A stretch of 64,000 nt of DNA. It comes from Minisyncoccota bacterium. Its GTDB lineage: Bacteria > Patescibacteriota > Minisyncoccia > Phycocordibacterales > CAJBRS01. The position numbers were made by a program, and so were the translations under genes. Location of the stretch: positions 21,654 to 85,653 of the forward strand of contig JADGRH010000002.1 of NCBI GenBank assembly GCA_017881075.1, in the 5' to 3' direction. Shown in pieces: positions 2,429 to 45,047 of the stretch (positions are counted from its first letter, which is position 1; the number at the start of each line of letters is the position of its first letter). The notes below the pieces were generated by a model. That model ran no database searches and was not told the DNA's origin. It saw only the letters and a list, made by a program, of their open reading frames with translations.

Positions 2429-4123
2429 ATGCGTATACGGATCCTCTCAATCGGCATAATTATTTTTGCCCTCTTTCTGGCAAGCAAACTTTATTTAGTA
2501 CAGATTGTTCAAGGAAATGATTTTATCCAAAGAGCCGACAGACAATATGTCCAATCGCCTGATTCAATCTTCAGTCGCGGGGCGATTTATTTTACTGATA
2601 AAGACGGCACTTTAATTTCAGCGGCCACTTTAAAATCCGGTTTTACTCTAACTATTAACCCTCAAGTTCTCTCCAATCCGGAAGAGGCTTACAAGAAAAT
2701 CAGTGCCTTATTGCCGACCCTTGATCAGTCGGCTTTTTTGGTTAAAGCGGCCAAAAAAGCCGACACCTACGAAGAAGTGGCATTAAAGGTTGAATCCGAT
2801 GTTGGCACGGCCATCGATCAGTTGAAAATTCCAGGGGTCAATATTTATAAATCACAATGGCGATTCTATCCTGGCGATACTCTGGCCGCTCACGCTCTCG
2901 GCCTTGTGGCTTATAATCAAGACCAGTTGGCCGGCCGTTACGGTTTGGAGAGGACCTATGAAAATACCCTTTCCAGAACCAACGATGATGTTTATGTTAA
3001 TTTCTTTGCCGAAATATTTTCCAACATTGGCAAGACTATCTCGTCAAGTCAATCTCTGGAAGGAGACATAGTGACCACCATTGAACCGACCGTTCAGGCT
3101 ACTCTTCAAAACGAATTAGATGGTGTTAAGAAACAATATTCCTCGGATAGCGCAGGAGGTATCATCATCAATCCAAAGACCGGCGAAATTTATGCCATGG
3201 CTCTGACTCCGAGCTTCAATCCGAATTCCTTTCAAGATGAAAAAAGCTCGGCTGTTTTCAGTAACGACATAGTAGAAAATGTTCACGAAATGGGTTCCAT
3301 CGTCAAGCCTTTCACCATGGCTATCGGATTAGATACCGGCGTCATTAATGCCACTACCATGTATAACGATGTTGGCTCAATGACTGCAAACGGCAAAACC
3401 ATTCATAACTTCGACTTAAAAGGGCGCGGATATATTTCTCTCCAGGAAGCTCTGGGAAAGTCGCTGAACACCGGCTTTGCTTTTGCTGAAAGTAAGATTG
3501 GAAATAAGGATTTCTCTGATTATATGAAGAAGTTTGGATTGGGGGAGAAAACAGGTATTGATTTGCCGAACGAAACCTCCGGACTGATCAGTAACTTGGA
3601 CAGTCCGCGAGATATTGAGCATTTCACCGCCGCTTTCGGACAAGGAATCGCCATGAGTCCATTAGAGATGGTGCGAGCAGAAAGTGCCTTGGCTAACGGA
3701 GGCAATCTGATCACACCTCATCTGGTAAAACAGATTAATTATAAGTTAGGTCTGTCTAAAACTATTGACCCACCGGCAGGTCCTCGTGTGCTTAAGCCGG
3801 AGACATCGGAAGCCATCACTAAAATGTTGGTGGAAGATTTTGACACATACCTTCAAAATGGCAAAGCCAAGAATCCAAATTACAGCATCGCCGAAAAAAC
3901 CGGCACCGCTCAAATAGCACTGCCCTCCGGCAAGGGTTATTATAATGATCGCTATCTGCACTCTTTCTTTGGATATCTCCCGGCTTATAATCCGCAATTT
4001 TTAGTCTTCATGTATACTGTCTATCCCAAAGGTGTCCAATTTTCATCCGAAACATTAGCACCGGCATTTATTGATTTAACCAAGTTTTTAATTAATTATT
4101 ATCAGATACCGCCAGACCGATGA
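2429..4123 (+). CDS. ftsI: penicillin-binding protein 2 / FtsI-type transpeptidase
   Basis: 564 aa; N-terminal TM; SxxK (SIVKPF) and further transpeptidase motifs; dcw context. Confidence 0.8.
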   Translation: MRIRILSIGIIIFALFLASKLYLVQIVQGNDFIQRADRQYVQSPDSIFSRGAIYFTDKDGTLISAATLKSGFTLTINPQVLSNPEEAYKKISALLPTLDQSAFLVKAAKKADTYEEVALKVESDVGTAIDQLKIPGVNIYKSQWRFYPGDTLAAHALGLVAYNQDQLAGRYGLERTYENTLSRTNDDVYVNFFAEIFSNIGKTISSSQSLEGDIVTTIEPTVQATLQNELDGVKKQYSSDSAGGIIINPKTGEIYAMALTPSFNPNSFQDEKSSAVFSNDIVENVHEMGSIVKPFTMAIGLDTGVINATTMYNDVGSMTANGKTIHNFDLKGRGYISLQEALGKSLNTGFAFAESKIGNKDFSDYMKKFGLGEKTGIDLPNETSGLISNLDSPRDIEHFTAAFGQGIAMSPLEMVRAESALANGGNLITPHLVKQINYKLGLSKTIDPPAGPRVLKPETSEAITKMLVEDFDTYLQNGKAKNPNYSIAEKTGTAQIALPSGKGYYNDRYLHSFFGYLPAYNPQFLVFMYTVYPKGVQFSSETLAPAFIDLTKFLINYYQIPPDR

Positions 4124-27776: not shown

Positions 27777-27799
27777 GCTGGGGATTAAGGACTCGAACC
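27777..27799 (+). repeat. degenerate repeat R6b (GCTGGGGATTAAGGACTCGAACC) with the TTTTATTTACAAATTCTT context
   Basis: seen directly; about 60% identity to the consensus. Confidence 0.6.
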
Positions 27800-27808
27800 T
27801 TTGAAAGT

Positions 27809-29888: not shown

Positions 29889-30746
29889 TTGAAAATTGAA
29901 AAGTTAGGAAACGACCAAAAACTTGGCCTCAAAAACGATGGCACTTTGGAAATTTTTTTCATCGGTGTGGGATCGGCATTCGCCATGAACCACAACCAGA
30001 CGAATCTACTACTAATAAAGGGCGACACCCATATTATGGTGGACTTCGGAATGACTGGTCCGAAAGCGCTCAAAGAAACTGCCCGTCTCGATGTAACCGA
30101 CCTTGAGGTCTTTCTGCCCACTCACTCTCATGCCGACCATGTCGGTGGATTCGAGTGCGCGGGACTTCTAAATCGATATAAAGGCCAGCCGTTCTTGAGA
30201 AGACCGAAGCTGCGCTGCATCATCACTCCTCCGTATCAGGAGATGTTGTGGGATATGAGCCTGCGTGGCGGAATGGAGTGGAACGAGCAGGAACACGATT
30301 CCCAAAAGACTCTGTCATTCCCCGATTTCTTCGTGCCCGTTCGTCCGACTTGGATGGAGCTCCAGCCGCGAGAGATTTACGAGATCGATTTCGAGGGCAT
30401 CCACCTCGAGATGTTTCGGACAAAGCACATTCCAAGCATGGCTTCAAGTTGGCAGAGATCCTTCTTCAGTATTGGTCTCTTCGTCGACAGGCGCATCTTT
30501 ATCTCAATGGATACTCGGTTTGACCCTGATCTCATCGATATGTATGCAGACAGATCGGAAGTGATGTTCCATGATGTTCAGTTTTTCCCAGACACGGTCC
30601 ACGCGCCGCTCGCAGACCTAAAAACTCTGCCGGAAGACATTAAGCGCAAAATGCATCTGATGCACTATGCCGACGACTTCGAGACACAAGACATCACTGG
30701 TTTTGCCGGATGGACGCAACAAGGGGTTCGCTACATCTTTGATTGA
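29889..30746 (+). CDS. metallo-beta-lactamase fold hydrolase (TTG start)
   Basis: HSHADHVGG (HxHxDH) motif; GAAAGGA RBS-like sequence upstream. Confidence 0.65.
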   Translation: MKIEKLGNDQKLGLKNDGTLEIFFIGVGSAFAMNHNQTNLLLIKGDTHIMVDFGMTGPKALKETARLDVTDLEVFLPTHSHADHVGGFECAGLLNRYKGQPFLRRPKLRCIITPPYQEMLWDMSLRGGMEWNEQEHDSQKTLSFPDFFVPVRPTWMELQPREIYEIDFEGIHLEMFRTKHIPSMASSWQRSFFSIGLFVDRRIFISMDTRFDPDLIDMYADRSEVMFHDVQFFPDTVHAPLADLKTLPEDIKRKMHLMHYADDFETQDITGFAGWTQQGVRYIFD

Positions 30747-33215: not shown

Positions 33216-33252
33216 GAGAATATTATAAACTATATTGTCTCGATATCACTGA

Positions 33253-33321
33253 TGGACGTGACGGGAATCGAACCCGTTCACTCCGAATGGTAGGTTCGGA
33301 GCGCTATCCAATAGCACGCCC
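33253..33321 (-). ncRNA. non-canonical tRNA-like gene 2 (69 nt); paralog of gene 1 with compensatory changes
   Basis: same architecture as gene 1; the 7-bp stem is CTCCGAA/TTCGGAG (was CCTCAAA/TTTGAGG) with the identical loop CCTACCA. Confidence 0.5.
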
Positions 33322-33431: not shown

Positions 33432-33447
33432 GCTCCGAACCTACCAC
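33432..33447 (+). other. copy of the anticodon-arm 5' strand of tRNA-like gene 2 (GCTCCGAACCTACCAC), inverted relative to the gene
   Basis: complement of the corresponding segment in gene 2; covaries with module head A. Confidence 0.8.
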
Positions 33448-33481: not shown

Positions 33482-33503
33482 AGCTTTTTATTTAAAAATT
33501 CTA

Positions 33504-33550
33504 CGTCGAAAGTCTGCTGATTTCGACGCGATTTTTACGCTTAAAAATCG
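33504..33550 (+). other. two adjacent perfect hairpins 5' of repeat R7
   Basis: identical to 24429-24475. Confidence 0.8.
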
Positions 33551-33578
33551 GCTGGGGGTCTGGTACGATGTTGGAACC
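33551..33578 (+). repeat. repeat R7 (consensus)
   Basis: seen directly. Confidence 0.9.
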
Positions 33579-33728
33579 TTTTTGACGAGTTTTACCCCCT
33601 AAGACCTTAAGATTCAATCCCTACCCACGGAGTAATTTATTTGACTTTCTAAGTATAGTATGGTAATGTTATCTTGAAACATTCCAATTGCAGGTAGCAA
33701 AAAACTTGCATAACCCGAGGACATTTAC

Positions 33729-34103
33729 ATGACCAAGAAAGTTCTTAAATTGCTGATTCTCGTCTCTATAGTGACTGTTGCCTTCATTGGCGGCCGTCTC
33801 ACCACTCCTCAGCCTCAAGTCGCTGACAATGCTGTGTATGAAAAAGCATGGCATTGGTGTGATGAACAAGCATTCAAGGGGCACGACGTAGCCTTCTTTG
33901 AACTTGCAAAGAAACAGATTCGAGCTCGCCAGATTCGCTGGAGCATCAACGATTCATCAGGGCTTCATTACAGCCTTCTCGTCTTGTTCGCCAAAAGCTA
34001 CGATGAGATGGTCGAGAGAGAATCCGTGACCCCCGAGGAGTTCGTTAAGCAAATAGCACCTGTTCTGAAGGAGTTAGCCAAGGCTCCTCGACCCTCAACT
34101 TGA
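33729..34103 (+). CDS. hypothetical secreted protein (cassette ORF)
   Basis: signal-peptide-like N-terminus; TTGACT-17-TAATGT promoter-like sequence upstream. Confidence 0.45.
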   Translation: MTKKVLKLLILVSIVTVAFIGGRLTTPQPQVADNAVYEKAWHWCDEQAFKGHDVAFFELAKKQIRARQIRWSINDSSGLHYSLLVLFAKSYDEMVERESVTPEEFVKQIAPVLKELAKAPRPST

Positions 34104-34168
34104 CCGCTTCAGTGCGAGACAAAAGCCAAACTGTCTTACGATGGGGCGGCTTTTTATTTAAATTCCTC

Positions 34169-34228
34169 GCTGTGGGTCTGGCCCGCCTGCCTAGCTACCG
34201 CAGGTGCGGGCAGGTACGATGTTGGAAC
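34169..34228 (+). repeat. repeat R8, carrying the 33-bp GC-rich hairpin insertion CCCGCCTGCCTAGCTACCGCAGGTGCGGGCAGG between TCTGG and TACGAT
   Basis: seen directly. Confidence 0.85.
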
Positions 34229-34300
34229 TTTTATTACCCACTTTCATGCTATTGACAAAATTACCACAATAAGGTATTATTCAGATAGGAAAGGACAAAT

Positions 34301-34495
34301 ATGAAAGAAGGTATTCTACTTCTCTTCCCCGTTCTCGGGCTGATTCCGCTTGTAGCCATGCTACTCTGGATCAAAAAGAAACAGGGTAAGGGACTGATGA
34401 TTCTCCTTAGCATCTTGATCTTTGCTGCCATTGTTTGGGCGTGTGTTCATTACCAAATCCGAATTTACGATAACGGCGGCTTGGGACTTTACTAA
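34301..34495 (+). CDS. small membrane protein (cassette ORF)
   Basis: 64 aa, two TM segments, terminator follows. Confidence 0.35.
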   Translation: MKEGILLLFPVLGLIPLVAMLLWIKKKQGKGLMILLSILIFAAIVWACVHYQIRIYDNGGLGLY

Positions 34496-34565
34496 GCGAG
34501 ATTCATTCCAACACGAGACGAGCTCTGACCACACAAGTCATCTCGTTTTTTATTTAAAATTCCTA

Positions 34566-34612
34566 CGTCGAAAGTCTGCTGATTTCGACGCGATTTTTAG
34601 GCTTAAAAATCG
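34566..34612 (+). other. two adjacent hairpins (third copy of the module-head leader) 5' of repeat R9
   Basis: the second hairpin loop is GGCT instead of CGCT. Confidence 0.8.
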
Positions 34613-34640
34613 GCTGGGGGTCTGGTACGACGTTGGAACC
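34613..34640 (+). repeat. repeat R9 (ACGACG variant)
   Basis: seen directly. Confidence 0.9.
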
Positions 34641-35482
34641 TATTTGACTGTAAAAATATCACTCACTAGCGAGGAATTATCAGAGAAATTTATATCTAAA
34701 TGATAAGCTCCAGGAGAAATACTCGTTGGAACCATCCAAACATAGGATTCCCCATGTACTCCAGCAGCAATTTTTGTTGGAATAGTGTCATGAAAATTGT
34801 CTTTAGGTTCAGCCTTCAGAAATATATCCGCGGTGTAATTATCTTCGGATGGCTTAGCCAACCATTTTAAAGTATAAGTTTGACCTCTAATAAATTCCGC
34901 TGCTACTTCAGGAAAAACAAATCTAGGATATGGAAAAAGTACTTCGTTAAGAGATACTTCTCCAACATACGGTAAAGTCAATTTTGAAACTAAATTGCCC
35001 TTAAGATCGTACCCTTGAATGTCTACTTTTGATACATGGATACCAACGGCAGATTCTAAAGCATTCCAATACCAGGATTGAGTTCCATCAAGCGCTGTGG
35101 CTTGCAGTTGTGCTGATCCTAATTGTTGAGATTGAGTTATCCCTGTTCCGGTTGGCCAACCATATATCTTTACACTCGCTAACCCTTTTCCATATATAAA
35201 CAGTTCAGGTTTACTTATTGTAAACTTTAAGAGAAAAGGTGTCACAGACACTGAAACGGTAGTAGTTGCAAAAGAATTAACTTGGGAATTGGTAGACGAG
35301 TTGTTTGAAGTAGATATTGTATTAAGCTGATCAGTAAATGTGGTTGAAGCTGTTAAAGAGACGCCATTATTTACTTGAGCACTTTTATTATGAATGTAAA
35401 TGTAAATTCCTCCGCCAATCGCCAAAGCAACAATAATGATAATCAAAAAAGGAACAACAAATCCTTTTTGGATATTTTTCAT
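34640..35482 (-). CDS. hypothetical secreted/anchored protein (cassette ORF)
   Basis: 280 aa, N-terminal TM, Ser/Thr-rich. Confidence 0.5.
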   Translation of the reverse strand: MKNIQKGFVVPFLIIIIVALAIGGGIYIYIHNKSAQVNNGVSLTASTTFTDQLNTISTSNNSSTNSQVNSFATTTVSVSVTPFLLKFTISKPELFIYGKGLASVKIYGWPTGTGITQSQQLGSAQLQATALDGTQSWYWNALESAVGIHVSKVDIQGYDLKGNLVSKLTLPYVGEVSLNEVLFPYPRFVFPEVAAEFIRGQTYTLKWLAKPSEDNYTADIFLKAEPKDNFHDTIPTKIAAGVHGESYVWMVPTSISPGAYHLDINFSDNSSLVSDIFTVK

Positions 35483-35516
35483 AATTAAAATGATATCACG
35501 AAATTAGCATTTTCTC

Positions 35517-35634
35517 GCTGGGGGTTTGGCCCGCCTGCCTAGCTACCGCAGGTGCGGACAGGTACGATACTCCCTGTTTGTTCAAGAGGCCTTGCGATTG
35601 ACTACAAACAGCAGTCCCCGTAGGGGGTTGGAAC
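35517..35634 (+). repeat. repeat R10, carrying both the 33-bp hairpin insertion and a 58-bp second insertion
   Basis: the second insertion, ACTCCCTGTTTGT...ACAAACAGCAGTCCCCGTAGGGG, is homologous to part of the R1 insertion. Confidence 0.85.
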
Positions 35635-35710
35635 TTTTTTGATGAGTTTTGGTACTTGACATAATACAGATATGTCATAAAGTCATATCAGAAATCAACT
35701 GGAAATACTT

Positions 35711-35947
35711 ATGGCACTAGCAACTACTCAAGGAAAAGAATTCGCCCTGAAAGCTCTTGGGGAAAGACGAGATCGTAACAAAACACGAGAACGAATCGAC
35801 AATACGGCATTACTCGCGGGTAGAGAAATGCATTTTGACTGCCTCGGCTGTGGGGATGACCTCATTGTCCCCGAAAATTATCTCAGGCGACCGAATTTAT
35901 GCGTGGAGTGTCAAGCACTCAAAACGTTGGGTTGGCTTGATCAATAA
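35711..35947 (+). CDS. hypothetical zinc-ribbon protein (CLGCG...CVEC)
   Basis: 78-aa ORF. Confidence 0.4.
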   Translation: MALATTQGKEFALKALGERRDRNKTRERIDNTALLAGREMHFDCLGCGDDLIVPENYLRRPNLCVECQALKTLGWLDQ

Positions 35948-35998
35948 GTATCAAGCGTTCCGTTAGCCGTCCTGTTGTGGCGGCATTTTATTTTTCTT

Positions 35999-36025
35999 GC
36001 TGGGGGTCTGGTACGATGTTGGAAC
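35999..36025 (+). repeat. repeat R11
   Basis: seen directly. Confidence 0.9.
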
Positions 36026-36052
36026 TTTTTTGGGAAATCGCTCAGAAAGTAG

Positions 36053-36430
36053 CTATAAATAGGTTCGGAGTTGTTCAACCGCACTATCAATTAATTCATC
36101 GTCGGGTACCACTTTTTCTAAAGCATCATAGATTGTAACTAGGCACTGAACCGCATCAGTTACCTTATCATTTGGATTCGGACCGAATTTACTTTCCAAG
36201 AAATGAACGACGTTGTTTTTCTCAATCGCTTCTATAATTTCTGTTCTTTCTTTTTCCATGTCCGCCTTCTCTGCAACGGTATGTTCTCCGCCAAGTGTTG
36301 CTCTAGGTGGTGTAGTCTGAAACAAATAGCTTTCCCTTAAGAGGGGCGTGACAAGGTTTCGAAATATTGGAGCACTCTCTGTAGAAGAGGTAACGCCATC
36401 ATTTTCTATTTCTCTTTCACGAAAAGTCAT
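36053..36430 (-). CDS. hypothetical protein (cassette ORF)
   Basis: 125-aa ORF. Confidence 0.45.
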   Translation of the reverse strand: MTFREREIENDGVTSSTESAPIFRNLVTPLLRESYLFQTTPPRATLGGEHTVAEKADMEKERTEIIEAIEKNNVVHFLESKFGPNPNDKVTDAVQCLVTIYDALEKVVPDDELIDSAVEQLRTYL

Positions 36431-36475
36431 AAATTTATAGTAGTAAAACTAGTAAATAAAAGCAAGATGTTTGAT

Positions 36476-36503
36476 GCTGGGGGTCCGGTACGATGTTGGA
36501 ACC
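36476..36503 (+). repeat. repeat R12 (TCCGG variant)
   Basis: seen directly. Confidence 0.9.
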
Positions 36504-36559
36504 TACATGACAGATAGACAAATAAAGCAAGGTGTGGTAAAAGTTATCACAGGTAAAAC

Positions 36560-36799
36560 ATGAGTGACGAAAACAAATGCAGTAATTGTGAGGCGCTCAG
36601 CAAGAGCAATTCGACAAAGCCAGCTGTACCCATGAATGGGACATGCAACGACATCTTGCATGAATGTCCTCTGGACGGACAGAAATGGTGGCAAATGAAT
36701 ACCCACTTTCATCTGTGGCAGAAAGTCAAAGATGACAAGCAATGGGAAGCGTTAAGAGAGGACCTTCGGCGACCGGTACAATCTGGTCACTTCTGGTAG
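36560..36799 (+). CDS. hypothetical Cys-rich protein (CSNC...C..C)
   Basis: 79-aa ORF. Confidence 0.4.
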   Translation: MSDENKCSNCEALSKSNSTKPAVPMNGTCNDILHECPLDGQKWWQMNTHFHLWQKVKDDKQWEALREDLRRPVQSGHFW

Positions 36800-36859
36800 G
36801 AAATGAATTTGGAGAGCTCGGATGACAACCCCTGCTCTCTTTTTATTTAAAAATTCCTC

Positions 36860-36887
36860 GCTGGGGGTCTGGTACGATGTTGGAACC
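36860..36887 (+). repeat. repeat R13 with the full extended context
   Basis: seen directly. Confidence 0.9.
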
Positions 36888-36951
36888 TTTTTAATGAATT
36901 TAAGCCATCAAATACCTAGGTTCGATACCTGCTCACCGAGTTTTGAAATAT

Positions 36952-37311
36952 CTATTCACCATCTCTAATTAAACGCACAAAGTAAGTCATTCCCTTTCCT
37001 ATATTTTGAGCTCTTTTATACCCAATCCCCATTAAAACTATATTAGCCATAACAGGTGGCTTTCCTTGATCTAAAATAACTGACTCCTCTGAAGCCCAGT
37101 AAGCACCTTCTTTAAAACCTTTTGTCTTTAATCTATCCGCCTCAAGAAGTTCCTCTGATGTAGGAAGTCTCCAAGGTTTTTCTCCTTCTGGTAGATTAGT
37201 GTTTAACTCTTCAATTATTCTGATGGCATCATCCCAATTTATACGAGTATCTATATCAATACCCCACTCTGACTTTAAGCTTTCTTGATTTGGAGTTCCT
37301 TCATTTTCCAT
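36952..37311 (-). CDS. DUF1566 (Lcl C-terminal domain)-like protein
   Basis: W-x-A...KPWRLPTSEEL pattern typical of the family. Confidence 0.45.
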   Translation of the reverse strand: MENEGTPNQESLKSEWGIDIDTRINWDDAIRIIEELNTNLPEGEKPWRLPTSEELLEADRLKTKGFKEGAYWASEESVILDQGKPPVMANIVLMGIGYKRAQNIGKGMTYFVRLIRDGE

Positions 37312-37346
37312 ATCTATTTATCATACCAAAAAAGTTCTAATAATTT

Positions 37347-37374
37347 GCTGGGGGTCTGGTACGATGTTGGAACC
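37347..37374 (+). repeat. repeat R14
   Basis: seen directly. Confidence 0.9.
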
Positions 37375-37391
37375 TTTGTTAGGATTTAGAC

Positions 37392-37706
37392 ATGGAATTC
37401 TTTCGTGAATCAGAACTAGATAAATTAATAAAAGAGCGAAATTCTAATGGCTGGGTTATGGCTGGATATGAGAAGTTAACAGTAACGAGGTTTCAGCCCG
37501 ATGCCAGATTTTTAGACGTGCCACTTCAGAGTGAAGATGATATAAAGAAAAAATATAAAAATGATGATACAGAAGTAGAACTAGTTTTAGCACCAAATCA
37601 TAAGTTAGAAGAAATTAGAAAAATACTTTCCCCTGAAGAATTTGCCAAAGCCTCTGTTCCTGATAGTGAGAAATCTTATTACGTATTCGTAAAAAAGAAA
37701 AATTGA
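37392..37706 (+). CDS. hypothetical protein (cassette ORF)
   Basis: 104-aa ORF. Confidence 0.45.
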   Translation: MEFFRESELDKLIKERNSNGWVMAGYEKLTVTRFQPDARFLDVPLQSEDDIKKKYKNDDTEVELVLAPNHKLEEIRKILSPEEFAKASVPDSEKSYYVFVKKKN

Positions 37707-37708
37707 TT

Positions 37709-37736
37709 GCTGGGGGTCTGGTACGATGTTGGAACC
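37709..37736 (+). repeat. repeat R15
   Basis: seen directly. Confidence 0.9.
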
Positions 37737-38020
37737 TATTTAGACTCTTTATTCATTTCGTCTCTCTCGAGTGCGTCCCCATCAATTGCGTCCAATAATT
37801 GACCCAACTCAACATTGCTCCAATCTTTATAAACGGATTTTTGCTGATTTTCATTGTCAGCTCCACGACTCCAAGCCTCAATGTCATTTCTTGTTTTTGT
37901 GTATATTTCGGGACTTATCTTCCTTACAGTTGCTAATTGCCTTACTTTTTCCCAAAATTCGTCAGTAGAAATCTCAGCCATATTTTCTATTTCATTTGGA
38001 TCATTTTCTCTTGATTCCAT
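37736..38020 (-). CDS. hypothetical acidic protein (cassette ORF)
   Basis: 94-aa ORF. Confidence 0.4.
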   Translation of the reverse strand: MESRENDPNEIENMAEISTDEFWEKVRQLATVRKISPEIYTKTRNDIEAWSRGADNENQQKSVYKDWSNVELGQLLDAIDGDALERDEMNKESK

Positions 38021-38126
38021 AAGGATAATTTAAGTTATGTTTAATATTTTTATTATACCAGATTCACCCGTCCTATTCTTATCTATTTTTAAATGGCTAA
38101 TCTAAAAGAGATTTTAATGCTTCCTC

Positions 38127-38154
38127 GCTGGGGGTCTGGTACGACGTTGGAACC
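38127..38154 (+). repeat. repeat R16 (ACGACG variant)
   Basis: seen directly. Confidence 0.9.
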
Positions 38155-38169
38155 TTTTTGACCTGAGTG

Positions 38170-38388
38170 CTATGCCTTACGCCATTGATTTGGCTTTCCC
38201 TTGTTAGTATGCCGAACTCGCTCAACGTCAGGTCGTACGCCCGGAAAAAGCTTTTGAGCTTTAGCTATAGCTTTTGCCTGCGTAGGAGCAACAACGGAAG
38301 CGCGCTTTGAGTGTTCTTGCCTCACAGCATAATCTTTCTCTTCTGATCGTCGTTCTATGTATACATCTCCCTTTCTTAATTTAGTCAT
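38170..38388 (-). CDS. DUF2188-like small protein
   Basis: DVYIERRSEEKDYAVRQEHSKRAS...TQAKAIAKAQKL pattern resembles DUF2188. Confidence 0.45.
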   Translation of the reverse strand: MTKLRKGDVYIERRSEEKDYAVRQEHSKRASVVAPTQAKAIAKAQKLFPGVRPDVERVRHTNKGKPNQWRKA

Positions 38389-38394
38389 AGCGAT

Positions 38395-38751
38395 TTAATT
38401 AATATGATTCGCCTCCGCTTGTTGTTTTGCTAATTCATTAATGGCAATTATGTTTGCGCCAAACCCTGTTCTATAATGTTTACTCCGAGAGCTCCTTTTG
38501 AACAAAAACTTAGTAATTTTCTCTCTACCTACTAACGGTGCAATCTTTTTATCTTTTCTAGGGTCGTCCCACATTGAAACTACTTCCCACCCCACAGCAC
38601 CCAACTCGTTCAGCATTAAGTTAAAATATTCTCTTTTGTGTTCTAAATTCTTGTATTCTTTTGAGTCGTAGTCATGCTCATCAAACTCTTCGTTGCTAGG
38701 ATTGAACATCCCGTGTACTAAGTACTCAAAACTCTGATCTAGAAATTTCAT
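38395..38751 (-). CDS. hypothetical protein
   Basis: 118-aa ORF, 6 bp downstream of the previous gene. Confidence 0.45.
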   Translation of the reverse strand: MKFLDQSFEYLVHGMFNPSNEEFDEHDYDSKEYKNLEHKREYFNLMLNELGAVGWEVVSMWDDPRKDKKIAPLVGREKITKFLFKRSSRSKHYRTGFGANIIAINELAKQQAEANHIN

Positions 38752-38774
38752 AACATTGAGTATACCAAATTCTT

Positions 38775-38806
38775 TTGACGGATGTCTGGGACAACATTGG
38801 GACCCA
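38775..38806 (+). repeat. degenerate repeat R17 (GACGGATGTCTGGGACAACATTGGGACCC)
   Basis: about 65% identity to the consensus in the expected position. Confidence 0.6.
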
Positions 38807-38825
38807 TTAGAGACATAGAATTTAA

Positions 38826-39035
38826 TTAATTTATTTCTTCAGCCTTCTCGCCGTACAACTTCATACTTTGAGCCTGTAAAGCTTCCAACGAATTATACTG
38901 ACCAACTACCTTCATTGGGGTCAAATATGGCAAATGATGTGAGGTTCTATCGTCTTCCATTTCATAGATAGGATGTATTAGAATGAAATCATCGCCCATT
39001 TTTCTGTAGCAAGGTTTAGCTAAGGGTTGTGTCAT
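38826..39035 (-). CDS. hypothetical protein
   Basis: 69-aa ORF. Confidence 0.35.
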   Translation of the reverse strand: MTQPLAKPCYRKMGDDFILIHPIYEMEDDRTSHHLPYLTPMKVVGQYNSLEALQAQSMKLYGEKAEEIN

Positions 39036-39076
39036 ATCTAAACTCTACAATAAAAAATAATGTTTAAAAAGTGTGG

Positions 39077-39104
39077 GCTGGATGTCTGGTACGATGTTGG
39101 AACC
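39077..39104 (+). repeat. repeat R18 (GCTGGATGTCTGG variant)
   Basis: seen directly. Confidence 0.85.
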
Positions 39105-39135
39105 TGTTTGTATCAAAAGTGATATAATCAGAAAT

Positions 39136-39591
39136 ATGACTGATAATAAAGAAAATACAGGCGTAACACTGACACCAGCTCAAACTGTTGATCTATTAAT
39201 GAGGCTTTATGATGCTAGATTTAACTATATGCCAGATGGCACTGTTCAAATTGATGTTAAAGTGCAAAATCTTATAGAAGAACTTGCGACAAACGCCGAA
39301 AAATCTTTTGGTCATGTAAAAGATGCTCAAGGAAAGAGTGTTTTTGGTGAGGCTTACGAGAAATATCGTAAAGGTCAAGATGCTATATTAAAAATCAGCG
39401 ATTTAGTAGTTTTAAATCCTAATGCTACGGCTTCTGATAAACAAGTTCATATAGAAAAAATATTAAAACTTAGTGAGACTGTAACAGGTAGATTATTCAT
39501 TCAACAAAGTATAGATGAATTTAAGACCGTAACGGGAGTCGATTTGAGTGAAAATATTAAAGCAATTCAAAAACTTTCTGACCATAAATAA
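39136..39591 (+). CDS. hypothetical protein (cassette ORF); start moved downstream of the repeat
   Basis: the ORF track opens at 39073 inside the repeat; MTDNKENT is the first Met after it. Confidence 0.45.
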   Translation: MTDNKENTGVTLTPAQTVDLLMRLYDARFNYMPDGTVQIDVKVQNLIEELATNAEKSFGHVKDAQGKSVFGEAYEKYRKGQDAILKISDLVVLNPNATASDKQVHIEKILKLSETVTGRLFIQQSIDEFKTVTGVDLSENIKAIQKLSDHK

Positions 39592-39647
39592 TTTTGTTAT
39601 AAATTACAATGTATAATCAGTTAAATTAACAAGCTATGTTTGCAACA

Positions 39648-39673
39648 CTGTGGGTCTGGTACGATGTGGAACC
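39648..39673 (+). repeat. repeat R19 (CTGTGGGTCTGGTACGATG-TGGAACCC; 1-nt deletion)
   Basis: seen directly. Confidence 0.8.
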
Positions 39674-39686
39674 CATATCAATAATT

Positions 39687-40004
39687 TTATTTCCAGGGGA
39701 GGCCCTTCTGAATCAAAATATAGGGTAAATAACCGGTTATTCCATAAAAAGCTACAATAAGAACTAGAAAATCTCCGATCTCTAAGGTGGTGAAAGAATG
39801 TATCCTCCAAAATATAAAATAAGCTAAGGCAATCCACCCCACTAATGAACCAATGAAATTTAGGATCCACTGACTCATACGTAATGGCCATGGAAAATCT
39901 CTCCACTTTTTCAGAGGCAGTCCATGAATTGTGGGGGTAAAGTATGTAATAAGAAAACTGGAAAGGATTGCAACTGCCCAATATGTTATATAAATAGAAG
40001 TCAT
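39687..40004 (-). CDS. membrane protein (cassette ORF)
   Basis: 105 aa, 3 TM segments; preferred over the overlapping 39634-39981 frame. Confidence 0.4.
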   Translation of the reverse strand: MTSIYITYWAVAILSSFLITYFTPTIHGLPLKKWRDFPWPLRMSQWILNFIGSLVGWIALAYFIFWRIHSFTTLEIGDFLVLIVAFYGITGYLPYILIQKGLPWK

Positions 40005-40046
40005 ACGTTATTAGTTATTATATCAAGATTCTAATTTGAAAATACT

Positions 40047-40076
40047 GCGTTGGGGGTTTGGGACGACGCTGGATCC
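40047..40076 (+). repeat. degenerate terminal repeat R20 (GCGTTGGGGGTTTGGGACGACGCTGGATCC)
   Basis: seen directly; last copy of the array. Confidence 0.7.
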
Positions 40077-40085
40077 TTTTTGAGG

Positions 40086-40577
40086 TTAACTCCAGATTTC
40101 ACTAGCTCTAGGTTCAAATTGTCTTAATATCTTTAGATAGTCTGCCTGAATATTCTGCTCGGCCCATTTAGGATACAACTCTCCTATTTGCCCATTTTTC
40201 ATCGAAATCTCATTACATGGCCCAAAAAAGAAGCCGTCTGGCGAGGCAATGAAAAGCCATGAGGGGTTCCACATTTTTAGAATGTCGTCCGTAATTTCTT
40301 TTATTTTACTTGGATCACGTCTAGTACAGAATTTAACTTCTACCAAATATACTTCTTTCTTATCCTGAGATATCAAGACAAAATCAGGAGCATTTCTTAT
40401 ATTTTCAAGAACGGCTTTTACTTCGGCTAGGTGTTGATATTGAGCAAGTTCCGGTAGTGTATATTCATAACCGGATCTGAGAATCGTATATTTCCCTGAT
40501 TCCCGAAACATTTGTTCAAAAATAGTTTCAGCGATTCTCCCTTTTATTAACTCTTTTGTAAATTCAATTTTATTCAT
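40086..40577 (-). CDS. PD-(D/E)xK nuclease-fold protein
   Basis: APDFVL...VYLVEVKF matches the PD...ExK catalytic core arrangement. Confidence 0.45.
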   Translation of the reverse strand: MNKIEFTKELIKGRIAETIFEQMFRESGKYTILRSGYEYTLPELAQYQHLAEVKAVLENIRNAPDFVLISQDKKEVYLVEVKFCTRRDPSKIKEITDDILKMWNPSWLFIASPDGFFFGPCNEISMKNGQIGELYPKWAEQNIQADYLKILRQFEPRASEIWS

Positions 40578-40588
40578 TTGGGTCTGGA

Positions 40589-41278
40589 TTACTCAATGCC
40601 ATCTAACATAGTCTGACTTAACGATATCGGCTTAGCTCCCGCAATATGCATAGGTTCTCGAATATCAAGAGCCGGATTTACTTGTGAAGGAATTCTAAAT
40701 GATATCGACATGACACCAATTACTTTATTGGACTCGATATCAATCAAAGGACATCCGCTATTTCCCGGATTACTTATCGCGTCTACGATAAACCAATCAA
40801 GTGGGTTCGGTGCTTGTGCTTTTCGTTTTACAGAACTGATTATTCCCTTATTCGCTATTAAGGTTAGGCCGAACCCGTCTTTTAACAAATTTACTGCATA
40901 AGGAAACCCAATGAAGTAAACGTCCTGACCCTCAACAATTGACTCGGAAAATTCTATTTTCAATGGCTTCAATAAATTAGGTTGAGTATTTGGTTTTAAT
41001 TTTAAAATGGCCATATCGTTTTCAAGAGCTTTTGTTTGGACCTCTACATTAAACCAATTATATTTTAGAAGATGACCTTCAGTTTCAGAAGCCACCATAC
41101 AGCCTAAATTAGTTAATTGATCTGGACTAAAATTTTGAATCAAATGGGCGGTTGTTAAGATAAATTGATTACTATGTACACAAAAACCACTTCCAAGAAT
41201 ATTCAATTGGCCATTATTAAGTGTGCCAACCGCTACGATGGAATTTATTACATCTTTTATATCACTCTTTAAGTTCAT
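40589..41278 (-). CDS. trypsin-like serine peptidase
   Basis: GSGFCVHSNQFILTTAHLI (His region) and GNSGCPL (Ser region) motifs. Confidence 0.6.
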   Translation of the reverse strand: MNLKSDIKDVINSIVAVGTLNNGQLNILGSGFCVHSNQFILTTAHLIQNFSPDQLTNLGCMVASETEGHLLKYNWFNVEVQTKALENDMAILKLKPNTQPNLLKPLKIEFSESIVEGQDVYFIGFPYAVNLLKDGFGLTLIANKGIISSVKRKAQAPNPLDWFIVDAISNPGNSGCPLIDIESNKVIGVMSISFRIPSQVNPALDIREPMHIAGAKPISLSQTMLDGIE

Positions 41279-41281
41279 AGT

Positions 41282-41500
41282 TTATTTAATTGTATTATTA
41301 ATAATAGCCGGACTATCTACGTTTGTGGCGTTATTAATAATATTTTGTGTGCCAATATTATTAATAATGTTATCACCATTTTTATTTTTTTGCTTGGAGA
41401 GATTCTTTTTATAAATGCTGATGCCTGTAAGGCCAATGAGTCCTAGAGTTATCCCTGCGGCGACAGAAGCAATATAGTTTACTAAGATAATTTCAATCAT
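41282..41500 (-). CDS. small membrane protein with Asn/Ile-rich tail
   Basis: 72-aa ORF, one TM segment. Confidence 0.3.
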   Translation of the reverse strand: MIEIILVNYIASVAAGITLGLIGLTGISIYKKNLSKQKNKNGDNIINNIGTQNIINNATNVDSPAIINNTIK

Positions 41501-41554
41501 GGCTACCTATAATACTAAGAGGGCTTTATCTAATATGCAGATAATAAAGTACTA

Positions 41555-41869
41555 TTATCCATTTGTCCACCACGCACCTAGATTAGACCAAAAGACCATT
41601 ATGAATCCAATGATGATTAAAATTATCCCATACACTACGGATTTAAATAGGATAAAGAAGCCGAGAAAAATTATAAAAGATGCCCAGACCCCCATCTTCT
41701 TCCATTTCTTAGCTGTTTGTTCAATCTCTATCACTTTTACCACCTCTACCACCTTCTTGTCTTCCTTAGCCTCAGTAGACTGAGGATGGATCGGATTACC
41801 ACAGGAGATACACGCACTTGCTTTGTCTGATATCTCTTTTCCACATTCTGAACATTTTATAAGCGACAT
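41555..41869 (-). CDS. zinc-ribbon plus TM small protein
   Basis: MSLIKCSECGKEISDKASACISCG followed by 2 TM segments; start taken at the internal Met. Confidence 0.35.
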   Translation of the reverse strand: MSLIKCSECGKEISDKASACISCGNPIHPQSTEAKEDKKVVEVVKVIEIEQTAKKWKKMGVWASFIIFLGFFILFKSVVYGIILIIIGFIMVFWSNLGAWWTNG

Positions 41870-42414
41870 AAATTTTATTTGCTTAATAGATTTATAAATA
41901 CAAAAAGCCCACCACGGGTAGTGGCCGAAGCCACTCAAACCGGTTTCCCGATAAGGCTGGATACAGCAACCCCATGATGGGTTTTTTATGCTGTATCCAG
42001 ACTTTTCGCCATGCCAACAATTTCTCATTGGTTTAGGCCATATTCAGTTGTAGATAAATTATAACACTAAAATAAGAAAATCTTGACTTGCAATTACTTT
42101 TACGAGGAGTAGAATCGTCGTTAATCAGGGTTCCCCAAAGAGGGATACTAGGAGGATATATTGCCCCACCCATTGTTTAGTTTTATCAGTTTCTTAACTA
42201 ATACAAGGCGGGGTGTTTTCTTTTTCCTCACAACTTATTGAGGAGACAATAAAAGTTTTTCGTGAAGAGAACGATCTAGAATTGTCTCCAGAGAAAGCCA
42301 ACGAATATTTAAATGCGTTTGCTGGCTTGTTTTTGGCGTTTCGGGATATGCCCGCAAGCCCGAGCTCTTTAGAGCCGGGCGGCGGGCTTCCGGACGACAA
42401 TCAAGACGATTCAA

Positions 42415-42439
42415 CCCTAGGTGTTAGTAACACCTAGGG
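42415..42439. promoter_or_regulatory. perfect 25-bp palindrome CCCTAGGTGTTA-G-TAACACCTAGGG, 19 bp upstream of the Rep-like gene
   Basis: 12-bp perfect arms; candidate operator or origin/nick hairpin. Confidence 0.5.
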
Positions 42440-42457
42440 TACGTTGCATATTGCACC

Positions 42458-43501
42458 ATGATAGACACCATTAAATTTTTAATACCAATGAAAGATCATA
42501 AACTCTTTGAACAACTAAAAGGCAACCTAATGCGATTCAGGAAAGATGATTTAAAAACTGGAAAAATGGAGTTTGAATTTTTCAGTAGCAATATTGAACT
42601 TGGCTCCTATCAGCGTTCAGTTGCCATAAAATCAACTGATGTACCCCAAGGATTCTTCATTGAATTTTCGGTCCCGAAGTATGCCAAGGGAAATAACGTG
42701 GAGATGATTTATCCGCATGACCTTCCTGATATTATGGCGAAACTTTATGAGGAATTATGCAACCACATGAATTACCGGCTTCTGCATTTCTCTCTATGGC
42801 CAATATATCGCCTTGATGTCTGCTACAACTGGATTTTCAAAAATGAGAGTGAGGCGGTCTATGCTATGGATTTTCTAAGGAGAATTGATTTTCCTCGCAA
42901 GAAAAAATACACCTATGACACCTCGGTTATGCATAAAGGCAGTGCTTACACCATAAAGTTTTATGCCAAAGGGCCAGAATTTAAAGCCCATGATTTTAAG
43001 AAAATTGAATTTAATCATGCCCTTAGTCTTCAGTCTTGGGCAGATCGGATAGTCCGGTTTGAAGTGAATTTGAAACGAATCTACCTACAGCAGTTTTTTC
43101 TGCTTGATGTAGTGTATATGAAAGATGTCGTTGATGATGAAAGCATTTTGGAAATCCTTAAATATTATTTGGAGAAAAAAGTATTTTTCTATCTTAATGC
43201 AAATTCTATGACTGATGAGAGCATAAAGCAGATATTGTTTGATAACTTTACCAAAATAAAAGCTACCCGCCTTTACCAGTTCTACAAGGATTTTTATTTT
43301 AGCGATGAGATGAAAAACATGCTTCTGCGGGGTGGCCTGAACAGAAGCACCATCTACCGATACAAGAAAGATTTAAAGAGGGTGGGTATAGGCATTTCAA
43401 TGGAAAAGTCGCCAAGTAGTATTAACATTTTAGAGCAGTTAGTCATTCCGTCCCCGAACTCCCGCTTTGATTTAATTGATTATCAATTTAAGGAAGTATA
43501 A
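42458..43501 (+). CDS. hypothetical protein, possibly a Rep_trans-type replication initiation protein
   Basis: 347 aa; loose similarity to the Rep_trans pattern (Y..K...RFE.NLKR); lies next to the serine recombinase. Confidence 0.3.
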   Translation: MIDTIKFLIPMKDHKLFEQLKGNLMRFRKDDLKTGKMEFEFFSSNIELGSYQRSVAIKSTDVPQGFFIEFSVPKYAKGNNVEMIYPHDLPDIMAKLYEELCNHMNYRLLHFSLWPIYRLDVCYNWIFKNESEAVYAMDFLRRIDFPRKKKYTYDTSVMHKGSAYTIKFYAKGPEFKAHDFKKIEFNHALSLQSWADRIVRFEVNLKRIYLQQFFLLDVVYMKDVVDDESILEILKYYLEKKVFFYLNANSMTDESIKQILFDNFTKIKATRLYQFYKDFYFSDEMKNMLLRGGLNRSTIYRYKKDLKRVGIGISMEKSPSSINILEQLVIPSPNSRFDLIDYQFKEV

Positions 43502-43511
43502 TATTGCCAAT

Positions 43512-45047
43512 ATGAAATTCATCATCTACTGCCGAAAATCAACAGACAGCGAAGATAGACAGGTTCTTTCTTTGGAATCTCAAGAAAACGAACTTAAACG
43601 ACTTGCTGAAACTAATGATCTAAAAATTGTTTCCATTTTTCGGGAGAGTATGTCGGCCAAAGAGCCGGGCCGTCCAGTATTCAATGACATGATGAAAATG
43701 ATTCTCTCTGGAAAGGCTGACGCAATTCTGTGTTGGAAGATAGATCGTCTTACTCGTAATCCTGTTGATGGTGGGCAGATTCAATGGTTGCTTCAGACTA
43801 ATAAAATAAATTGCATTAGAACTTTTGAAAAAAGTTTCTACCCGAATGACAATGTCCTACTGATGAGCATTGAACAAGCCATGGCTAGTCAGTACATCAG
43901 GGATTTGAGTGTGAATGTTAAACGAGGTAATCGGGAGAAGTTAGCCAGAGGAGAGTGGCCTAATCATGCTCCTTTCGGATATTTGAATGATAAGGCCAAT
44001 AAGACTATCGTTGTTGATCGGGCTAATTCTAAATACGTTTCTAGAGTATATGACCTCTATGTTAATAATCATAAAAACTTTAAGGAAATTTCATCTTTTC
44101 TTCATAACGAGGGTTTGAGGACAAAGTCTGGTGGGAAAGTTATGAAAAGTCACATTCAGAGAATTCTCTCCAATCCATTTTATTCCGGTATCATGCTCCG
44201 AGAAGGAAAATATTATCAGGGCAACCATGAGCCGTTAATTCCGAAAAGTGTCTTCGATCAAGCCCAAGAAATTATGCAAGGAAAACTGCACCCTAAATCA
44301 AAACGATTATTCTTTCCACTCCGAGGATTCCTCTCTTGCGATAACTGCGGTTGTTCTCTCACTTCCTCCCTCAAAAAAGGCCACCAGTATTACTACTGCA
44401 CTAACGGCAAGGGTAGCTGTGAGGAACACAAAAGCTATCTCCGAGAAAACCAGCTTTATGGCGTGGTCGCCAATATCCTCGCCAATATTGATTTTACCGA
44501 GCCAAAGATTGAAAAAATGTATCAAGCGGCTAAGGAGAAATCTGACTTTGAGAGTGGGTATATCATTCAGAACTTAAAGACCCTAGAGACACAGCTAGAA
44601 TCGCTTAAAACGAAAGAATCTCGCCTTCTAGACACCTTCCTAGCCGAGCAGATACCGAAAGACCTTTACGATCAAAAAACTTTAGAATTGCAGAATGAAA
44701 AATTCTCACTAGAAAAAAGGATTAAAGAGTTTAAAATCCAACAACCCGCTTTTACTTTGGAACCGATTAAAAGTATGTTTCTGGAAGCCAGTAGAGCCAA
44801 AGTAGCATTTCTTAACGGAGATGATTACAAGAAAAGAAAAGTGATAGAAAATTTTGTTTGGAACTTATCGCTGAAAAACAAATCTGTGGCTCAAATGAAA
44901 CTCGTCGGGCCTTATGAAGTGATGTTCAAAGCACCTAAAAACGGCAGTATGCGTGAATTGCTGGGGGTCTGGGACTCGACCCGAGCTTTTATTGAGTTGG
45001 GCCGCTGTAGGGAGGGAGATATAACATTGGATCAAGGTATCCGTTAA
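43512..45047 (+). CDS. large serine recombinase
   Basis: resolvase catalytic domain IYCRKSTDSEDRQVLSLESQ (active-site Ser), recombinase domain, zinc ribbon CDNCGC...YYYC, C-terminal coiled coil. Confidence 0.85.
   Translation: MKFIIYCRKSTDSEDRQVLSLESQENELKRLAETNDLKIVSIFRESMSAKEPGRPVFNDMMKMILSGKADAILCWKIDRLTRNPVDGGQIQWLLQTNKINCIRTFEKSFYPNDNVLLMSIEQAMASQYIRDLSVNVKRGNREKLARGEWPNHAPFGYLNDKANKTIVVDRANSKYVSRVYDLYVNNHKNFKEISSFLHNEGLRTKSGGKVMKSHIQRILSNPFYSGIMLREGKYYQGNHEPLIPKSVFDQAQEIMQGKLHPKSKRLFFPLRGFLSCDNCGCSLTSSLKKGHQYYYCTNGKGSCEEHKSYLRENQLYGVVANILANIDFTEPKIEKMYQAAKEKSDFESGYIIQNLKTLETQLESLKTKESRLLDTFLAEQIPKDLYDQKTLELQNEKFSLEKRIKEFKIQQPAFTLEPIKSMFLEASRAKVAFLNGDDYKKRKVIENFVWNLSLKNKSVAQMKLVGPYEVMFKAPKNGSMRELLGVWDSTRAFIELGRCREGDITLDQGIR
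44960..44975 (+). repeat. half-copy of the array repeat (GCTGGGGGTCTGGGAC) inside the last 90 nt of the serine recombinase gene; identical to the left half of R1
   Basis: 16/16 nt identical to 24476-24491. Confidence 0.7.

Follow-up and report, generated by a model that had tools for sequence, protein, structure and literature searches.

The described systems closest to the locus reported here are the staphylococcal cassette chromosome (SCC), integron arrays, integrative elements that target tRNA genes and Xer/dif modules, together with miniature inverted-repeat transposable elements (MITEs) and their relatives. The attC site of integrons is an imperfect palindrome of 57–141 nt that folds as single-stranded DNA and carries R''/L''–L'/R' boxes. 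The T-loop is a classic crossover region of tyrosine integrases that target tRNA genes, and work attributed to Williams in 2002 is said to treat the sublocation classes of tRNA-gene-targeting integrative elements, T-loop crossover included. Large serine recombinases (LSRs) cut at a 2-bp centre, and their attachment (att) sites, about 40–50 bp long, hold an identical non-palindromic central dinucleotide in both junctions. The genomes of bacteria of the Candidate Phyla Radiation (CPR) are tiny, and few mobile elements are recognised in them; inovirus-like elements that carry serine recombinases are known from this group in general terms (PMC6813254). The locus studied lies in a Minisyncoccota bacterium (assembly GCA_017881075.1, contig JADGRH010000002.1, positions 21,654 to 85,653 of the forward strand; this 64-kb stretch is the window throughout) and consists of two arrays of a short direct repeat, three copies of which are interrupted by small hairpin-forming inserts. 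The repeat is the att site of a CPR-wide element family, and exchange occurs within its 6-bp centre. Literature searches returned no description of the site or of such arrays in CPR bacteria, and the literal site sequence matched unrelated primers only.

The window contains 19 copies of the repeat, all on the + strand, six of them in array 1 (24476–27376) and 13 in array 2 (33551–40075). Matches to TACGATGTTGGAAC with at most two mismatches number 16 against 0.36 expected, far beyond chance. Array 1 continues after its first copy, R1, with the uninterrupted copies R2–R6, each 27 nt long and starting at 25454, 25681, 26298, 26859 and 27350 (span 25454–27376), with one small open reading frame (ORF) on either strand between neighbours. 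Array 2, mapped from repeat matches, ORFs and Pfam, comprises R7 (33551), R9 (34613), R11–R17 (35999, 36476, 36860, 37347, 37709, 38127 and 39077) and two degenerate sites (39647 and 40049), in addition to R8 and R10. Most adjacent copies enclose a single small ORF, which may lie on either strand and in most cases matches no Pfam family. The cassette units measure 0.25–0.95 kb, and the cassette ORFs inspected seem to carry their own promoter or terminator.

Three copies depart from this pattern. In R8 (34169–34228, +), the left half GCTGTGGGTCTGG (34169–34181) is followed by a 33-nt hairpin, hp33 (34182–34214), the core TACGAT (34215–34220) and the right half GTTGGAAC (34221–34228). R10 (35517–35634, +) is doubly interrupted: its left half GCTGGGGGTTTGG (35517–35529) precedes hp33 (35530–35562), the core TACGAT (35563–35568), a second insert, el57 (35569–35626), and the right half (35627–35634). 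In R1 (24476–24612, +), the left half GCTGGGGGTCTGG (24476–24488) and the core GACGAT (24489–24494) are followed by a third insert, nest (24495–24547), then by el57 (24548–24604) and the same right half (24605–24612). R8 and R10 share duplication family D7, and R10 also belongs to family D8, in which both copies of el57 have the right flank GTTGGAACTTTTTTGA. The original prediction had placed a 33-bp hairpin in R8 and R10 exactly between TCTGG and TACGAT, a position that is correct to the base, although the left flank in R10 reads TTTGG. It had also placed an element of about 57 bp after TACGAT in R10 and R1; the position is borne out, while the core of R1 is GACGAT. The further nested 47-nt hairpin claimed for R1, with a duplicated GCTCCC, is present as described: nest, found in R1 only, measures 53 nt (GCTCCC plus 47 nt) and is placed directly after GACGAT and directly before el57. 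The description of the inserts as GC-rich applies to hp33 (76% GC), whereas the others have about 40–50% GC.

The placement of these inserts is precise. The two copies of hp33 are identical at 32 of 33 positions and occupy the same insertion point, and el57, 58 nt long in R10 and 57 nt in R1, is 92% identical between copies over 50 nt, the differences falling mainly in loops. The target context is fixed as ..TGG^KACGAY^G.., corresponding to points 12/13 and 18/19 of the site, which lie symmetrically, 3 bp to each side of the central CpG. The half-sites and cores beside the inserts are intact (0–1 mismatch), and hp33 only, el57 only, both and neither all occur among the copies. With two copies of hp33, two of el57 and one of nest, every insert copy lies inside a site; copies at unrelated, non-repeat locations, which would have contradicted the predicted positional preference, are absent from the DNA searched. 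This comparison DNA comprises the 64-kb window and 112 related loci (about 640 kb). Two exact matches to a 20-nt piece of hp33, on viral contigs of IMG/VR, fall within phage coding sequence whose flanks are unrelated, and were treated as chance. Interrupted sites make up 3 of 19 in this genome against 0 of about 100–200 elsewhere (Fisher p = 0.0035 to 0.0006), a comparison based on a single metagenome scan with the uninterrupted 21-mer, by which an interrupted site elsewhere is detectable only beside an intact one; no insert was seen inside any of the roughly 200 external site copies in the fetched loci.

All inserts are non-coding and all fold as hairpins, with DNA fold z-scores of -1.3 for hp33, -2.4 and -2.6 for the copies of el57, -4.5 for nest and -4.7 for a further module located immediately upstream of a site. 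The stem of hp33 reaches 2 bp into the CTGG of the site itself. The upstream module, which has two hairpins and a length of 48–66 nt, lies before R1 at 24410–24475 (+), between ..AATTCT and CGGCTGGGGG (family D6; DNA fold -14.8 kcal/mol), and recurs within the same family at 33485–33550 before R7 and at 34547–34612 before R9 (both +). It also precedes one site in another genome (locus L004). Its architecture, a long hairpin followed by a short one on the same strand, is shared with el57 and nest, and the latter two, which stand in tandem in R1, have a common frame GCTCCC-hairpin-GCAGTCC... The cassettes flanking shared modules are unrelated, whether hp33 in R8 and R10, el57 in R1 and R10, or the upstream module at R7, R9 and L004. 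As a separate observation, the 3' end of el57 in R10 pairs with the site's GGGGGTTG and is followed by GAACTTTTTT (window 35612–35640, +); the resulting structure scores as an intrinsic terminator that is absent from the uninterrupted site.

Outside the window, an exact search with the central 21-mer recovers the site from Paceibacteria and Saccharibacteria genomes and from 94 metagenome stretches, many of them from groundwater. These external copies, about 200 in all, are nearly always arranged in same-orientation arrays with a spacing of 0.3–1 kb. The site is about 35 bp long, of the form GCTGGGGGTCTGG–KACGAY–GTTGGAACYTTTT, and the external consensus reads tt-GCTGG(G/c)(G/a)GT(C/T)TGG-KACGAY-GTTGGAAC-YTTTnT. 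Its conserved block extends from position -2 to +32 around the centre ACGA. The right half with ACGA is 95–99% conserved and the GT(C/T)TGG of the left half 86–99%; conservation of the left half persists when sites are picked by the right half alone. The gap between the halves is exactly 6 nt in 198 of 199 uninterrupted pairings. In this genome, segmental duplications end at the site (the 300-nt family D4 and the 102-nt family D6). The genes flanking the arrays are housekeeping genes (DnaX, Dus, FtsEX, PrfB, SerRS), and a search there for a conserved recombinase led to none. Searches of IMG/VR for the site and for the LSR gave no match, and exact-protein look-ups with the cassette proteins returned unitigs of the same sample or nothing. 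Solo left half-sites, GTTTGGGGTCTGG and GTTCAGGGTCTGG, occur 32–35 nt upstream of complete sites in L020 (about 1230–1302, -) and L026 (703–773, +) and may be remnants of deleted cassettes.

Several other identities of the repeat were considered and rejected. Against a sigma-54 promoter, the repeat lacks the GG-N10-GC spacing and keeps one orientation whatever the direction of the gene; against a CRISPR-like or TIGR-like array, copies are 230–950 bp apart with ORFs between them. A resemblance to a tmRNA 5' end led to no tmRNA gene, the Rfam tmRNA match at 33250–33321 being a separate tRNA-like gene. Without inserts, the site forms no stable structure (DNA -0.7 kcal/mol, z +0.25; RNA z +1.0). 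A T-arm-like RNA hairpin (UCUGG/UUGGA with G-U pairs) fails on this absence of a stable fold and on the absence of covariation, only C/U varying in one pair, and an integron attC or dif-type palindrome fails for want of both a fold and dyad symmetry. A look-alike of the f1 gpII origin in the repeat (GTTCCAAAC...TGGAAC) is no more than a lead.

The point of exchange within the site is located by linkage between site variants and their flanks. Nine site pairs that share the left flank only agree over variable positions 0–12, with 100% agreement at variable positions 1, 5 and 9 (background about 60%), but do not agree from 27 onward. Conversely, four pairs that share the right flank only agree at 18 and 27–33, not at 0–5. 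Each junction is thus a composite, its left half travelling with the left cassette and its right half with the right cassette, which places the exchange point between positions 12 and 18, in KACGAY. Arrays L056 and L078 share a cassette at 89% identity although its neighbours to the left and right are unrelated, and its homology both begins and ends inside the flanking sites. At 44960, moreover, a solo half-site follows the consensus up to GGGAC and then continues as T-loop-like TCGACCC. The trinucleotide CGA is the only one common to site-type and tRNA-type junctions in five of six bounded elements, the left-aligned and the CGA-aligned registers differing by 2 nt. The part of the original prediction that made TACGAT the crossover core is accordingly upheld as to location, by the linkage, by the half-site switch at 44960 and by the insertion points; the more specific picture of a tyrosine-recombinase spacer of 6 bp cut at both edges is not supported, since the arms are without dyad symmetry, partial searches found no such enzyme and the linked enzyme is a serine recombinase. 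As both insertion points bracket the mapped exchange core, the inserts constitute a natural marker of site processing.

The site is linked to tRNA-Gln. ARAGORN identifies tRNA-Gln in 24 of the fetched loci, and of the 36 tRNAs found across all fetched loci 24 are tRNA-Gln; where sites were mapped as well, the arrays lie on its 3' side in antisense orientation, with the exception of one extra same-sense site upstream in L074. Read in antisense, the tRNA-Gln 3' end is GCTGGGGG-ACTTGG-ACTCGAA-CCAAG and the site GCTGGGGG-TCTGG-KACGAYG-TTGGA. From this alignment, in which about 13 of 16 positions are identical over the left half, the left half resembles the acceptor 3' strand and T-stem and KACGAY takes the place of the T-loop. 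The first 8 nt co-vary, rare variants (GCTGCGGG, GCTCGGGG, GTTG.. and ACTG..) being common to local tRNA and local sites. The cassette-side half-site GTTGGAAC is unrelated to tRNA. No tRNA-Gln was found in the 64-kb window; instead, both arrays end rightward in tRNA-3'-like pseudo-sites. The one closing array 1 (TTGCTGGGGATTAAGGAC–TCGAACCTT, 27777–27803, +) resembles a tRNA 3' fragment and lies directly after the RarA stop codon. The other, at 44958–44985 (+), begins as a perfect left half-site, (TT)GCTGGGGGTCTGGGAC, and continues as the T-loop-like TCGACCCGAGC; it lies inside the 3' end of an LSR ORF, and its right flank is homologous to L111. Stretches resembling tRNA 3' fragments (e.g. TAGGTTCGATACCTGCTCACCGAG) are also seen about 32 nt downstream of R5, R7 and R13 (window 26910–26935, 33602–33625 and 36910–36935); as about 218 sites show no general enrichment, they may mark a cassette subfamily. 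T-loop-like motifs downstream of sites are not enriched (13 against 11–18 in controls).

An integrated element of 4.9 kb follows array 2 (40076–44957, +); its left border is the degenerate site at 40049, its right border the half-site at 44958. It encodes a trypsin-like peptidase (40589–41278, -), a G2P-type rolling-circle Rep (42458–43501, +) and an LSR with Pfam Resolvase, Recombinase and zinc-ribbon domains (43476–45047, +). In loci fetched through the LSR protein, and thus independently of the site, the same association recurs. Each of six bounded elements (the window, L076 and the LSR-fetched L104, L107, L110 and L111) has exactly one repeat-type site 3–6.4 kb upstream of the LSR gene. 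The 3' end of that gene overlaps an intact antisense tRNA-Gln in L104–L109 and L110 and, in L111, a pseudo-site homologous to the one in the window, and L076 repeats the layout of site, LSR and partner site of the window element. A G2P-type Rep precedes the LSR in L104–L109 and in the window's own contig (L103); no Rep is annotated in L110–L112. With the site upstream and the tRNA or pseudo-site at the LSR end, the right half GAYGTTGGAAC arrives with the LSR element. Cassettes and element have their attachment system in common, and the element's LSR would be the catalyst at the site. The LSR has more than 2,600 homologues; the few with a named source are labelled Patescibacteria or Parcubacteria group bacteria.

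Three further observations concern these elements. The LOOT RNA motif (RF03000) is present in two related ones, in the window at 41920–42039 (-), upstream of the Rep gene, and in L111 at 3845–3953 (-), with 82 and 62 bits; it may belong to the replication or regulatory region of the element, possibly acting as single-stranded DNA. The last ~20 codons of the LSR are antisense of an intact tRNA-Gln (..L(G/P/R)DL(D/E)SNQ..SY(R/L)*) in L076 (10140–10213), L104 and L107 (11449–11520) and L110 (5311–5382), so that the LSR C-terminus must differ between the integrated and the excised state. Finally, the element in L107 (1–9000) is dense in defence-type genes (DpnI, an Mrr-like nuclease, ThsB-TIR, a BsaWI-type restriction enzyme, a LexA-methyltransferase fusion and a zeta toxin), which suggests that Rep-LSR elements ferry defence cargo in CPR genomes.

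The explanation favoured for the system as a whole, which is given an even chance of being correct, combines a CPR-wide att site of Rep-LSR elements with tandem mini-cassettes and with insertion modules at the core edges that freeze junctions. The 27–35-bp repeat would serve as the att site of Patescibacteria-wide integrating elements encoding a G2P-type Rep and an LSR, and its chromosomal partner would be tRNA-Gln, at its T-arm and 3' end, or a look-alike pseudo-site. Mini-cassettes of one gene each, with no recombinase, would have piled up in tandem at two pseudo-sites, leaving 6 and 13 junctions. At each junction, strand exchange inside the central KACGAY would join a left half GCTGGGGGTCTGG from the left cassette to a right half GTTGGAACYTTTT from the right one. 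The hairpin modules would have been inserted secondarily, at a distance of 3 bp on each side of the central CpG and immediately upstream of the left half, as tiny non-autonomous insertions of a MITE-like or palindrome-associated (PATE-like) kind that target core edges and may gain entry while the site is cut or single-stranded. Such modules would part both half-sites from the core and so freeze the junctions that they occupy.

For the inserts themselves, small non-autonomous modules that target core edges, in line with the MITE-like alternative of the original prediction, are the favoured interpretation, because the flanking cassettes are unrelated, two related modules are stacked in R1 and one module is shared with L004; we infer their mobility from the same pattern. 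The interrupted copies lie far from the growing end of their arrays, R1 being the first of 6 copies and R8 and R10 the second and fourth of 13, with the Rep-LSR element at the other end. From these positions, and from the parting of the half-sites from the centre, the inserts probably disable old junctions and freeze them, with loss of site function.

Several points weigh against this interpretation. Neither the window nor the 112 related loci, IMG/VR or the plasmid and phage collections yielded a further copy of hp33, el57 or nest, and the many dispersed copies that characterise MITEs are absent from the 64 kb and the ~640 kb of related DNA. Neither terminal inverted repeats nor target-site duplications are clear, the only candidates being GG (hp33), GCTCCC (nest) and CTCCC/GGGAG (one el57 copy). 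No transposase candidate was seen, a scan of the window ORFs for the Y1 (HUH) transposase motif being empty; the G2P-type Rep of the window is itself an HUH protein. Since each module has only two or three copies, recurrent insertion and gene conversion are inseparable. As for the recombination itself, the uniform left half of internal junctions is 2 nt shorter before CGA than that of tRNA-Gln or pseudo-site junctions; internal junctions are not simple copies of the tRNA-compatible half, and repeated integration at a tRNA does not by itself account for their uniform left half. Classical serine integrases, moreover, do not recombine like sites.

A more far-reaching version, held only tentatively, sees in the arrays an integron-like cassette platform of CPR bacteria that runs on an LSR, perhaps with a rolling-circle Rep, in place of an integron integrase, with tRNA-Gln as anchor and a site of about 35 bp common to several CPR classes, in which the hairpins, exactly 3 bp to each side of the centre, reveal two points that are opened or single-stranded. 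In that case the modules might represent a novel kind of site-specific mini-insertion, or serve cassette circles as single-strand origins.

The main rival to core-edge insertion, a little less probable than the platform, regards the inserts as passive. Each would have arisen once, by a template switch during replication or by illegitimate joining where the site was nicked or bound by protein, and then spread by gene conversion or by core exchange, R10 combining an R8-type left part with an R1-type right part. The existence of all four combinations of hp33 and el57 is consistent with such a history, as are the site-ending duplications D4 and D6, the confinement of insert copies to sites and the right flank retained by el57 in both copies. 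The unrelated flanking cassettes argue otherwise, because core exchange alone cannot move a module and every transfer would require a second breakpoint within 13–20 nt of homology. In R1, the tandem of two modules that are related yet distinct resembles repeated insertion, and the upstream module occurs also in the different genome of L004.

It is improbable, again by a small step more, that the site is the core of a tyrosine recombinase of integron, Xer or integrase type, with TACGAT as its 6-bp overlap and inserts that entered at the staggered cleavage positions as by-products. The two insertion points are indeed separated by exactly 6 bp and lie symmetrically around the centre of the site, the 6-bp core contains the mapped exchange point, and KACGAY occupies the T-loop position of the tRNA. 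Yet the arms are not inverted repeats, no dyad symmetry being present in the consensus between the left arm GGGGGTCTGG and the right arm GTTGGAACC, and the inserted sequences are foreign rather than copies of an arm. A tyrosine recombinase was found neither in about 40 window ORFs scanned nor, for the first half of the loci, among the 25 commonest families of the 146 ORFs scanned there, both searches being partial, and the only recombinase gene that overlaps the partner site is the LSR, in six of six elements.

Less likely still are modules maintained as selected functional structures, namely single-strand origins for Rep-made cassette circles, terminator or insulator hairpins, or optional stems of a site RNA. 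Such roles would accord with the common long-plus-short hairpin build of three module families on the same strand, with el57 differences that fall mainly in loops, with the terminator score of the el57 3' end joined to the site's GTTG and T-run, and with the G2P-type Rep encoded by the associated elements. Set against them, no site or insert has an Rfam match at the gathering threshold or even at E <= 10, about 200 sites work without modules, and the whole interrupted sites R8 and R10 fold no better than shuffles (z -0.4 to -0.75). The copies are too few for a covariation test, and the neighbouring genes are often on the other strand, which leaves a terminator role not obvious. An assembly or chimera artefact is scarcely credible: repeats are typical places of misassembly, but Logan unitigs from the raw run SRR10489828 match at 100% identity across the entire R1 (L102, window 24459–25712) and, in R10, across its left part with the greater portion of hp33 (L101, window 34570–35556), so that the interrupted structures are not assembly artefacts.

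If the att-site explanation is true, a conserved cassette-stacking site beside tRNA-Gln would be one of the main ways in which CPR bacteria gain and lose genes, and a serine-recombinase counterpart of the integron. The hairpin inserts matter less, being a lineage-specific curiosity that may show how junctions become fixed. A short conserved att site with many cognate LSRs could also interest genome engineering.

Between the two arrays lies an ordinary gene block encoding RarA/MgsA, an S24 LexA-like peptidase, a metallo-beta-lactamase-fold protein and AsnB. The metallo-beta-lactamase-fold protein (29889–30746, +), which adjoins the LexA-like peptidase and RarA, matches the Pfam family Anti-Pycsar Apyc1 (PF23023, 96.8 bits). 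A 300-nt duplication (88% identity) before both arrays holds an odd pair of tRNA-like genes (33250–33321 and 24177–24248, both -), each of which folds as a cloverleaf: the D stem has 4 bp and a 3-nt loop, the anticodon-like stem has 9 bp, the loop reads CCUACCA and the T arm is normal. With the Rfam tmRNA model they reach 36 bits, below its gathering score; ARAGORN is silent, and the long stem shows compensatory changes between the copies. About 110 nt upstream in the tRNA-like transcript lies a 14-nt complement that changes in step (+ strand 33433–33446 and 24357–24370), and between it and the tRNA-like gene are a perfect sigma-70 promoter (33481–33454, -) and a terminator-like hairpin; the complement looks like a regulatory leader or antisense partner of the gene.

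Compared with known systems, the hairpin inserts resemble MITEs, REP/REPIN sequences and PATEs derived from IS200/IS605 in being small non-coding hairpins at the same target position in different contexts, and the tandem in R1 recalls the re-insertion at one target point of which IS200/IS605-type elements are capable. They differ in having only two or three copies, all within att sites, and in lacking convincing terminal repeats or target duplications and an identifiable cognate transposase. Xer/dif modules, such as integrative mobile elements exploiting Xer (IMEX) and Acinetobacter pdif modules, are likewise small gene modules with sites of about 28 bp around a 6-bp centre and an enzyme encoded elsewhere. 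Their arms are inverted over 11 bp and pdif orientation alternates, whereas the CPR arms are unrelated and all sites point one way; the CPR arrays, moreover, sit at tRNA-Gln rather than at the replication terminus. As in other elements that target tRNA genes, the partner is the tRNA T-arm and 3' end, a tRNA-like half is carried and the recombinase gene abuts the att site. Unlike the tyrosine-integrase elements of that group, with their symmetric arms, the CPR enzyme is a serine recombinase and the cassette-side half GTTGGAAC bears no relation to the tRNA.

Integron arrays share with the CPR arrays tandem one-gene cassettes, mostly of unknown function, a site of constant orientation that is a composite of two cassettes' ends, and the recurrence of the same cassette in different arrays. 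Features of attC are missing from the CPR site, which is short and unstructured, with no attC-like hairpin and no inverse core upstream, and in which exchange takes place in the middle rather than at the edge. CPR cassettes lie on either strand, the inspected ones apparently with their own promoter or terminator, and are anchored at a tRNA in place of an attI (the site at which IntI joins attC) with its promoter Pc. No IntI adjoins the arrays, as judged from the lack of a Phage_integrase-type match in the window ORFs scanned and in the 25 commonest families of 146 flanking ORFs, a search that was not exhaustive. With SCC and SCCmec (Ccr recombinases, rlmH/orfX) the differences lie in the size of the CPR units (0.25–0.95 kb, with a single ORF), in a target formed by the tRNA-Gln T-arm or a look-alike, in the conservation across CPR classes of a full ~35-bp site rather than a short core and in a G2P-type Rep as constant partner of the predicted LSR catalyst. 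Like SCC, whose elements stack up in tandem at a single chromosomal site, the CPR system has an LSR at the element edge and integrates at the 3' end of a conserved gene; as in SCC including its recombinase-less pseudo-SCC forms, the sites are direct repeats in one orientation, and some units are without a recombinase and would need one in trans.

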